A stretch of 64,000 nucleotides of DNA. Origin: an uncultured Candidatus Saccharibacteria bacterium. GTDB taxonomy: Bacteria; Patescibacteriota; Minisyncoccia; Phycocordibacterales; UBA9973. The position numbers and the translations under genes are program-made. Positions 19,812 through 19,820 of the stretch are shown in pieces. How positions within the stretch are numbered: the first letter of the stretch is position 1; each line of letters opens with the position of its first letter. Below the pieces are notes generated by a model, which saw nothing but the letters and a program-made list of their open reading frames with translations, did no database searches and had not been told where the DNA came from. The stretch lies in assembly GCA_964553015.1 (NCBI GenBank), contig CAZKJE010000002.1, forward strand, positions 14,175 through 78,174. The letters are read 5' to 3'.

Positions 19812-19820
19812 TTATCCACA
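19812..19820 (+). promoter_or_regulatory. TTATCCACA motif 7 bp upstream of a -35 box
   Basis: Perfect 9-mer preceded by G. TTGATA follows at 19828..19833 and TATAAT at 19853..19858. Confidence 0.4.

Follow-up and report, generated by a model that had tools for sequence, protein, structure and literature searches.

A DnaA-box-like sequence at the nrdJ, lexA and pilus-operon promoters of Candidatus Nomurabacteria: a candidate single-box operator

The 64-kb stretch of DNA analysed here (the window) comes from an uncultivated member of Candidatus Nomurabacteria (Patescibacteria, Candidate Phyla Radiation, CPR) and carries, among others, a lexA operon, an operon for a surface protein and a type IV pilus, and nrdJ, which encodes a class II ribonucleotide reductase (RNR). 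Our subject is a nine-base sequence that looks like a binding site (box) of the replication initiator DnaA and that is found in front of these genes. The exact word TTATCCACA occurs in the window at 2143-2151, 18821-18829 and 19812-19820, always on the plus strand and always between genes, intergenic DNA making up about 8.7% of the window; the base before all three copies is G, giving AGTTATCCACA, and AG precedes each. An earlier reading of the same DNA from its letters alone (the sequence-only reading) had reported three perfect, G-preceded, intergenic plus-strand copies and had called the motif rare by chance. Both statements hold: 0.47 copies are expected on both strands of the window, and three copies were reached in just 1 of 100 dinucleotide-preserving shuffles. 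Two copies with one mismatch are present as well, GTTATCCACT at 44719-44728 on the plus strand, whose 9-mer TTATCCACT starts at 44720, and TTATCCACC at 40750-40758 on the minus strand. The boxes and the promoters next to them are the following.

2142..2151, plus strand: box 1, GTTATCCACA, between comM and the lexA operon, at roughly -53 to -45 with respect to the promoter of that operon
2161..2189, plus strand: lexA-operon promoter, TTGACA-17-TATACT (consensus scan, 11 of 12 matches)
2167-2182: LexA-type palindrome GTGAACgctcGTTCAC, of the Gram-positive type GAAC-N4-GTTC, between the -35 and the -10 of the lexA-operon promoter
18820..18838, plus strand: box 2, GTTATCCACA, with an adjoining partial second box GAATCCACA, 5' of TGgTATACT (18865-18873) and of a 249-aa gene (18958-19707)
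19811..19820, plus strand: box 3, GTTATCCACA, 33 nt 5' of the -10 that serves the surface-protein/type IV pilus operon
19828..19868, plus strand: promoter of the CARDB/PKD surface-protein gene, read directly, with TTGATA (19828-19833), a 19-nt spacer, TATAAT (19853-19858), 7 nt and the ATG (19866)
44719..44728, plus strand: box 4, GTTATCCACT, the final T of which doubles as the first base of the -35
44728..44757, plus strand: nrdJ promoter, TTGCTA-18-TATTAT (consensus scan)
44758..44829, plus strand: what a deletion has left of a membrane-protein gene, the joined 5' and 3' ends now serving as the nrdJ leader (by comparison with L064, 9384-9968, L077 and L006); nrdJ follows at 44830-47124
56591..56601, plus strand: candidate weak extra site AGTTATGCACT, upstream of the isoleucyl-tRNA synthetase gene, with the position-5 variant also seen in orthologous nrdJ promoters

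The window was compared with related loci, which are referred to by L-numbers. The nrdJ query returned 80 loci of species-representative genomes. Almost all of them bear the label Candidatus Nomurabacteria, Paceibacterota or Patescibacteria, and the closest was GCA_016186435.1 with 96% amino-acid identity; the PilB query returned 80 metagenome loci. After the removal of duplicates, the window and these loci comprise 2.27 Mb of Nomurabacteria/Paceibacteria DNA, and the lineage-wide counts below refer to this set. Gene starts are ATG-start calls, and the promoter surveys were anchored on the -10; for the pilus operon, where automated start detection was noisy, the starts were taken from gene maps. 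The HU protein of the window has identical copies in several public contigs.

At site 1, the box ends 9 nt 5' of the lexA-operon promoter, which drives a 66-aa open reading frame (ORF, 2279-2479) followed by the S24 LexA gene (2507-3076). The sequence-only reading had placed each perfect copy upstream of a -35-like hexamer: this holds in part, as it is the case at site 1, and at sites 2 and 3 the -35 hexamers are weak or mis-spaced and the consensus scan called no promoter. The box is present at the lexA promoter in all four genomes that could be compared (window, L001, L002 and L003), always at the same distance (6 nt followed by TTGTTGACA), and it has been kept there while the six spacer bases and the upstream flank of L001-L003 differ from those of the window. 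Pfam has no match for the 66-aa ORF, which is likewise conserved in L001-L003 (MSQ.QYLKMLEREIQ...), lies between the LexA-controlled promoter and lexA, and possibly encodes a small protein of the SOS operon.

Site 3 stands before a gene for a 936-aa CARDB/PKD surface protein, which is followed by the genes for PilB, PilC and further proteins (Pfam). The TATAAT lies only 7 nt from the ATG, and therefore the surface-protein mRNA is probably leaderless. The same arrangement recurs in the relatives: a perfect box in plus orientation heads the series of genes from the surface protein to pilB in L088/L123, L094, L098, L106, L109, L122, L127 and L134. Pilus-operon promoters with a perfect box were found in at least nine loci with PilB proteins that are 65-89% identical, and one-mismatch variants occur in several more. 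In L098, L109 and L127 the box stands 32-33 nt from the -10, which agrees with site 3 of the window, and the box is often divergent from a nusA-sized gene, again as in the neighbourhood of the window's site. L088/L123 presents a more elaborate picture: its pilus-operon promoter (4808-4825) has two boxes that face each other head to head as an inverted pair, TGTGGATAAgTTATCCAC, and two more identical boxes with identical flanks (3766 and 1194) lie 5' of neighbouring genes for proteins of 317 and 308 aa. The latter two are in reverse orientation, between a putative -10 and the gene start, a geometry that looks repressor-like.

Site 2 lies only 1 kb away, in front of the gene for the 249-aa secreted protein, which belongs to no Pfam family and was seen only in the same strain (L086) among the loci examined. 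A GC-rich hairpin terminator (19760-19786) follows this gene. In a related contig of the Joint Genome Institute (JGI), the homologous surface-protein gene directly adjoins nusA in divergent orientation, and a 244-aa gene is found between the surface-protein gene and pilB. The 249-aa gene of the window was therefore probably inserted recently and either brought a box along or acquired one. The crowding of two perfect boxes and a partial one within 1 kb (18821, 18830, 19812), close to the point at about 18.7 kb where the genes switch from the minus to the plus strand, and a minimum of the cumulative GC skew near 22 kb could also point to a role of these boxes outside transcription, either as a datA-like reservoir that titrates DnaA or as a cryptic oriC. 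We regard this as highly improbable: there are only two or three boxes in this region, no cluster of at least four boxes within 400 bp was detected in 1.42 Mb (window and L001-L085), and the GC skew follows the gene strand, being positive, for example, at 6-12 kb, where the genes are on the plus strand. On these three grounds, an origin at 18-20 kb was rejected. Moreover, Pfam reveals no dnaA or dnaN gene nearby in the window, and the boxes keep fixed distances to the -10 and are retained at specific promoters in relatives with a different gene order.

Among the links proposed by the sequence-only reading, the one to the nrd genes has turned out to be the strongest. The one-mismatch copy at 44720 had been said to abut the -35 of nrdJ, and indeed its last base is the first one of TTGCTA. 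In most relatives, nrdJ does not have its own promoter and comes after a gene that encodes a small membrane protein (about 185-194 aa) belonging to no Pfam family. This gene is present in 65 related loci; it is absent from the window and from L006, as both have suffered an internal deletion in it. L064 and L077 possess the same GGCGGTTATCCACTTGCT...TTATTATTATAG promoter as the window in front of an intact membrane-protein gene, and site 4 is orthologous to the boxes of L006, L064 and L077 as well as to those of the TTATCCAC-TTTACA class (about 50 other loci). We aligned the nrdJ-operon promoters (n=56) on their TGTATAAT -10, that is independently of the box: an exact core TTATCCAC stands at a fixed offset in 44 of the 56 related species, it has one mismatch in five, and it is absent from seven. 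Distant relatives in which nrdJ has a promoter of its own (L059, L069, L071, L084) bear the box as well, and the association of the motif with nrdJ reaches relatives with NrdJ proteins that are just 56-70% identical. In the most distant loci, L067-L069, NrdR-like palindromes of the ACCATATATTGTGGT type are located 5' of nrdJ.

In the largest class of sites the box abuts the -35 at a fixed distance and has an A-tract upstream, as might be expected for a core promoter element, UP-like or an extended -35, that is read by RNA polymerase itself. This explanation is very unlikely. The motif is present at only four or five promoters of the window, its distance to the -10 varies (25, 33 and about 40 nt), and it is asymmetric and contains G and C, unlike UP elements. 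The seven orthologous nrdJ-operon promoters that have lost the box retain both the -35 and the TGTATAAT -10, which also speaks against a core promoter element.

Some further features of the nrdJ region deserve mention. A leader of about 90-100 nt separates the box promoter from the membrane-protein/nrdJ operon in L007 (9317-9416), L023 (9310-9408), L050 (564-658), L044 (1681-1775) and about 11 other loci. It contains a conserved GTTGCGAAA...GCAAC hairpin and a TATTATA(C/T)AAC block, a search of Rfam with it gave no family at E <= 1, and it may be a cis-regulatory RNA that has not been described. Some other species do without this leader and have the ATG about 7-9 nt after the -10. Hexamers of the -10 type at 7-9 nt from an ATG that has no Shine-Dalgarno sequence are found at 19853-19868 of the window and at the nrdJ-operon promoters of L010, L011, L014, L018, L040 and L062, which points to leaderless mRNAs as a common feature of the lineage. 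Upstream of nrdJ, the HTH_23 protein encoded at 43324-43998 was considered as a local regulator and rejected, as it is present in just four other loci and looks like a mobile endonuclease. The end of this sporadic gene overlaps a tRNA-Ile gene with the anticodon UAU (ARAGORN, 43989-44062), which is uncommon in bacteria. The isoleucyl-tRNA synthetase downstream of the candidate weak site (56948-60448, 1166 aa) has a histidine-phosphatase domain (His_Phos_1) inserted at residues 524-611, within its catalytic domain.

The box is also found at several other promoters. In relatives, it precedes a DUF4430 gene that has an adenosylcobalamin (AdoCbl-II) riboswitch in front of it and lies shortly downstream of nrdJ. 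Such modules with a perfect-box promoter are present in L019 (13054-13144), L037 (5591-5681), L044 (5235-5322) and L048 (8517-8613), the latter with two boxes 38 bp apart; the window does not have this module and carries a cobalamin adenosyltransferase gene (47158-47715) instead. A box lies upstream of mraZ in both loci that contain this gene, oriented toward mraZ in L056 and in the opposite direction in L084. Immediately 5' of mraZ and next to the box, direct GTGGGA(A/T) repeats that resemble MraZ autoregulatory sites are found in both (L056 16870-16895, L084 about 11560-11620). Other recurrent targets are a csoR-like repressor gene and XRE/SocA-type genes, each in two loci.

The lineage-wide distribution of the motif corresponds to that of an operator. 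Between genes, TTATCCACA was observed 49 times with 3.9 copies expected from a third-order Markov model, a 12-fold excess, whereas it is depleted inside genes (14 observed, 24.2 expected). The broader motif TTATCCAC[ACT] has 99 intergenic and 49 coding copies, intergenic DNA accounting for 11% of the set. Most of the intergenic copies (86 of 99) are directed at the start of an adjacent gene, and between co-directional genes 52 of 60 share the orientation of the genes. Between the 8-mer and the -10-like hexamer that follows it, the distance has a sharp peak at 25 nt and a second one at 33 nt. At the nrdJ operon and the riboswitch promoters the box occupies about -45 to -38, at lexA and the pilus operon about -53 to -46, and it is almost never located over the spacer, the -10 or the start site. 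A de novo ranking of intergenic 8-mers was uninformative, since words from tRNA and tmRNA genes dominate it. The sequence-only reading had argued from consistent position and orientation that the motif is functional, and it had asked whether the motif is enriched upstream of genes, whether it is part of a dispersed repeat and whether the sites are conserved in relatives: the enrichment is strong and gene-directed, and the box is retained at orthologous nrdJ-operon, lexA and pilus promoters.

Chance matches or fragments of a dispersed repeat are effectively refuted as an explanation of sites 1-4. Chance is excluded by the statistics of the window and by the lineage-wide distribution. A repeat could be suspected since the TTATCCACC copy on the minus strand (40750) is located in an element that also occurs in L081, L132 and L133. 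However, the sequence shared by sites 1-4 is limited to 10-13 bases, with 9-11 box bases common to them, there is no extended similarity of the flanks and there are no terminal inverted repeats, and the flanks of orthologous sites diverge while the box stays. The sequence-only reading was right to place a further one-mismatch copy in an element that resembles a miniature inverted-repeat transposable element (MITE), but this is a separate repeat that has nothing to do with the promoter boxes. The element (window 40714-40853; L081 5160, L132 4326 and L133 8020, distant relatives) is an inverted pair of modules of about 45 nt with the structure (T)TATCCACC-hairpin-CCTCAAGAGGGGAAT. The motif unites intergenic enrichment, orientation toward genes, a constrained distance to the -10 and a footprint amid diverging flanks. 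Dozens of related genomes retain it at the same promoters, which makes a genuine regulatory site almost certain.

Several lines of evidence suggest that these sites are single DnaA boxes used as promoter-proximal operators, a reading in which DnaA is the predicted binder and to which we assign a probability of roughly 0.6. First, the three exact copies of the window and the 49 exact intergenic copies of the comparison set match the DnaA-box consensus TTATNCACA. The wider E. coli consensus, TT(A/T)TNCACA, allows A or T at position 3. At the fifth base of the consensus TTATNCACA, the affinity of DnaA decreases in the order C > A = G > T (PMC2533591). The variants at nrdJ operons are TTATGCAC (L017, L036, L028, L030), TTTTCCAC (L021, L047, L052, L063) and TTATCCCC (L027), and in eight of these nine the change falls on position 3 or 5, where the DnaA consensus is degenerate, though not all of these events are phylogenetically independent. 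Second, G is found at -1 in 66 of 93 promoter-associated boxes as compared to 10 of 58 others, and all four R boxes of the E. coli oriC (NC_000913.3) have this G. Third, the site is a single asymmetric 9-mer, neither a palindrome nor a direct repeat, and it therefore fits a monomeric reader such as domain IV of DnaA. Fourth, the persistence of the link to nrdJ in distant relatives favours a universally conserved factor. Finally, the predicted targets overlap with known DnaA regulons (nrd, ftsL/dcw and SOS genes): DnaA acts on nrdAB in E. coli, which has also been proposed for B. subtilis and Caulobacter, on the ftsL promoter of B. subtilis, and together with LexA on SOS genes of E. coli (PMC8203912).

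A number of observations weigh against this reading or against its stricter forms. In 40 of 49 nrdJ-operon sites, T replaces the consensus A at the ninth position, plausibly owing to its overlap with the -35, of which it forms the first base; the lexA, riboswitch and pilus sites and most single sites have A there. Double boxes are limited to site 2 of the window, L122, L048, L076 and L088, and most sites consist of one box, whereas stable binding of DnaA in vivo in B. subtilis was seen only at clusters of boxes (PMC2533591). Neither dnaA nor oriC of this lineage was found in the 170 fetched loci. The search of the nrdJ and pilB sets for DnaA and other markers gave only a gyrB in L029 that does not adjoin dnaA; a scan of viral contigs with a DnaA profile gave one betaproteobacterial locus (GC 59%) that is irrelevant to the lineage, and walking outward from the ends of the window yielded only short contigs of the same strain with no dnaA or oriC. 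To our knowledge, DnaA is near-universal in bacteria, including the CPR. In a CPR genome, DnaA-box-like sequences have been found near the replication origin (PMC4736985). At the promoters themselves, the consensus scan called none with a 16-18-nt spacer at site 2, where a good -10 (TGgTATACT) is combined with a weak or mis-spaced -35, and in its strict form it did not call the promoter of site 3, which has a good -10 (TATAAT) as well and a TTGATA at 19 nt. The distance from box to -10 differs between promoters (16, 25, 29, 33 and 41 nt), which weakens a strict activator geometry. Since nrdJ and pilB were the genes around which the loci were gathered, orthology inflates the box counts, and at more than 1.5 kb from nrdJ the intergenic excess is more modest (12 copies, 3.45 expected).

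Some of these points would be explained if the box were the operator of another factor, for instance a monomeric or two-domain helix-turn-helix regulator of the Paceibacteria, with a merely coincidental likeness to the DnaA box. The evidence on the DNA element is neutral about its binder, single boxes at fixed promoter positions are more typical of dedicated regulators than of DnaA (PMC2533591), and the T at the ninth position of the nrdJ class fits in as well. We nevertheless consider such a factor unlikely: the core, the degenerate positions 3 and 5 and the flanking G all match bona fide DnaA boxes, the targets coincide with those of DnaA (nrd, ftsL/dcw, SOS), the association with nrdJ persists at 56-70% identity of NrdJ as expected for a universal factor, and no candidate regulator gene co-localises with the boxes.

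The motif, with the consensus R-G-TTATCCAC-A, is an asymmetric single-box operator for a DNA-binding protein that adjoins the -35, or lies just 5' of it, in a few sigma-70-type promoters of the Nomurabacteria/Paceibacteria. If DnaA is indeed the binder, the following picture emerges. DnaA would bind the box via the C-terminal domain IV and act as a transcription factor that modulates the recruitment of RNA polymerase. The predicted regulon would comprise the nrdJ operon, the DUF4430 gene controlled by the B12 riboswitch, the lexA operon, the surface-protein/type IV pilus operon and the mraZ cell-division operon. The supply of dNTPs, the control of the SOS response, the DNA-uptake machinery and division would then track the amount or the nucleotide state of free DnaA and, with it, the status of replication. 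For lexA, with its near-consensus promoter and its own LexA operator, the box would add an input from replication to the autoregulation of the SOS response. Most likely, the box links gene expression to DNA replication. The direction of the effect is purely inferred: we lean slightly toward activation by recruitment of RNA polymerase rather than repression, because of the upstream or adjacent position of the box, its uniform orientation, and the weak or mis-spaced -35 with an extended -10 that a number of targets show. In E. coli, DnaA that occupies high-affinity boxes activates nrdAB, and a high DnaA-ATP level represses it (PMC8203912). This dual behaviour implies that either sign is possible in the Nomurabacteria as well, perhaps depending on the bound nucleotide.

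It is tempting to speculate further that DnaA is a global single-box regulator in these CPR bacteria with their tiny genomes and few transcription factors, and that it ties B12-dependent RNR, the capture of B12 by way of the AdoCbl riboswitch, the type IV pilus and competence, lexA and mraZ to the status of replication. We put this forward tentatively and hold it to be possible but rather doubtful. If it is true, the pilus/competence machinery, which is thought to import DNA, would join the chain of nucleotide supply, and the regulon would be among the first to be inferred for uncultivated Patescibacteria, with an unusual, fixed class-II-like promoter geometry. Gene regulation in Patescibacteria is almost unknown because these bacteria are uncultivated, and in the literature searched we found no description of DnaA-box promoter sites in the Patescibacteria/CPR. 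A short and conserved motif that can easily be scanned for defines a testable regulon (nrdJ, B12 uptake, lexA, pili, mraZ) and gives a handle on how a minimal cell may couple replication to the acquisition of nucleotides and to division. Were DnaA the binder, the link between DnaA and RNR would reach beyond Proteobacteria and Firmicutes to include the CPR as well as enzymes of class II, which would argue for an ancient link; if it is not, a new factor that mimics the DnaA box in its binding site would be more surprising.

That DnaA acts as a transcription factor, including on RNR genes, is established. What would be new is its predicted use at one box per promoter and at fixed positions in uncultivated Patescibacteria, for the class II RNR/B12 module, lexA, the pilus and mraZ. 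A close parallel is nrdAB of E. coli, where a DnaA-box 9-mer is likewise located at or just 5' of the -35 of an RNR operon and couples dNTP synthesis to the initiator (PMC8203912). However, nrdAB encodes a class Ia enzyme and has three boxes, whereas the Nomurabacteria have a class II, B12-dependent NrdJ and one box, usually TTATCCACT overlapping the -35; moreover, their operon mostly includes a small membrane protein and has a neighbouring B12-riboswitch gene with the same box. The DnaA regulon of B. subtilis was reportedly also the subject of work by Goranov in 2005, and the ftsL operon of this organism begins with a homologue of mraZ. The consensus given in the ChAP-chip study of B. subtilis is the same TTATNCACA (Ishikawa 2007, PMC2533591), and the targets are again related to replication stress and division: the ftsL promoter is bound, and RNR genes have been proposed (PMC8203912). 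In contrast to the stable sites of B. subtilis, which are clusters of many boxes, the sites described here are single boxes with defined promoter positions and uniform orientation. At uvrB and recN of E. coli, as far as this is summarised from Wurihan 2018 in PMC8203912, a DnaA box and a LexA operator meet at one promoter and link replication to the SOS response; here, the promoter is lexA's own, in which the -35 and the -10 enclose the LexA box and the DnaA-type box stands at about -49. NrdR boxes, the usual sites of the dedicated RNR repressor, regulate nrd operons, too, and the Nomurabacteria site differs from them in being a single asymmetric 9-mer that is also present at non-nrd promoters. 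NrdR boxes are 16-bp palindromes in tandem. Finally, the boxes R1-R4 of the E. coli oriC have the same core with G at -1, R4 reading GAGTTATCCACAG and sites 1 and 3 of the window GAGTTATCCACAT, but the boxes of the Nomurabacteria are not clustered, do not adjoin an AT-rich unwinding element and are tied to promoters.

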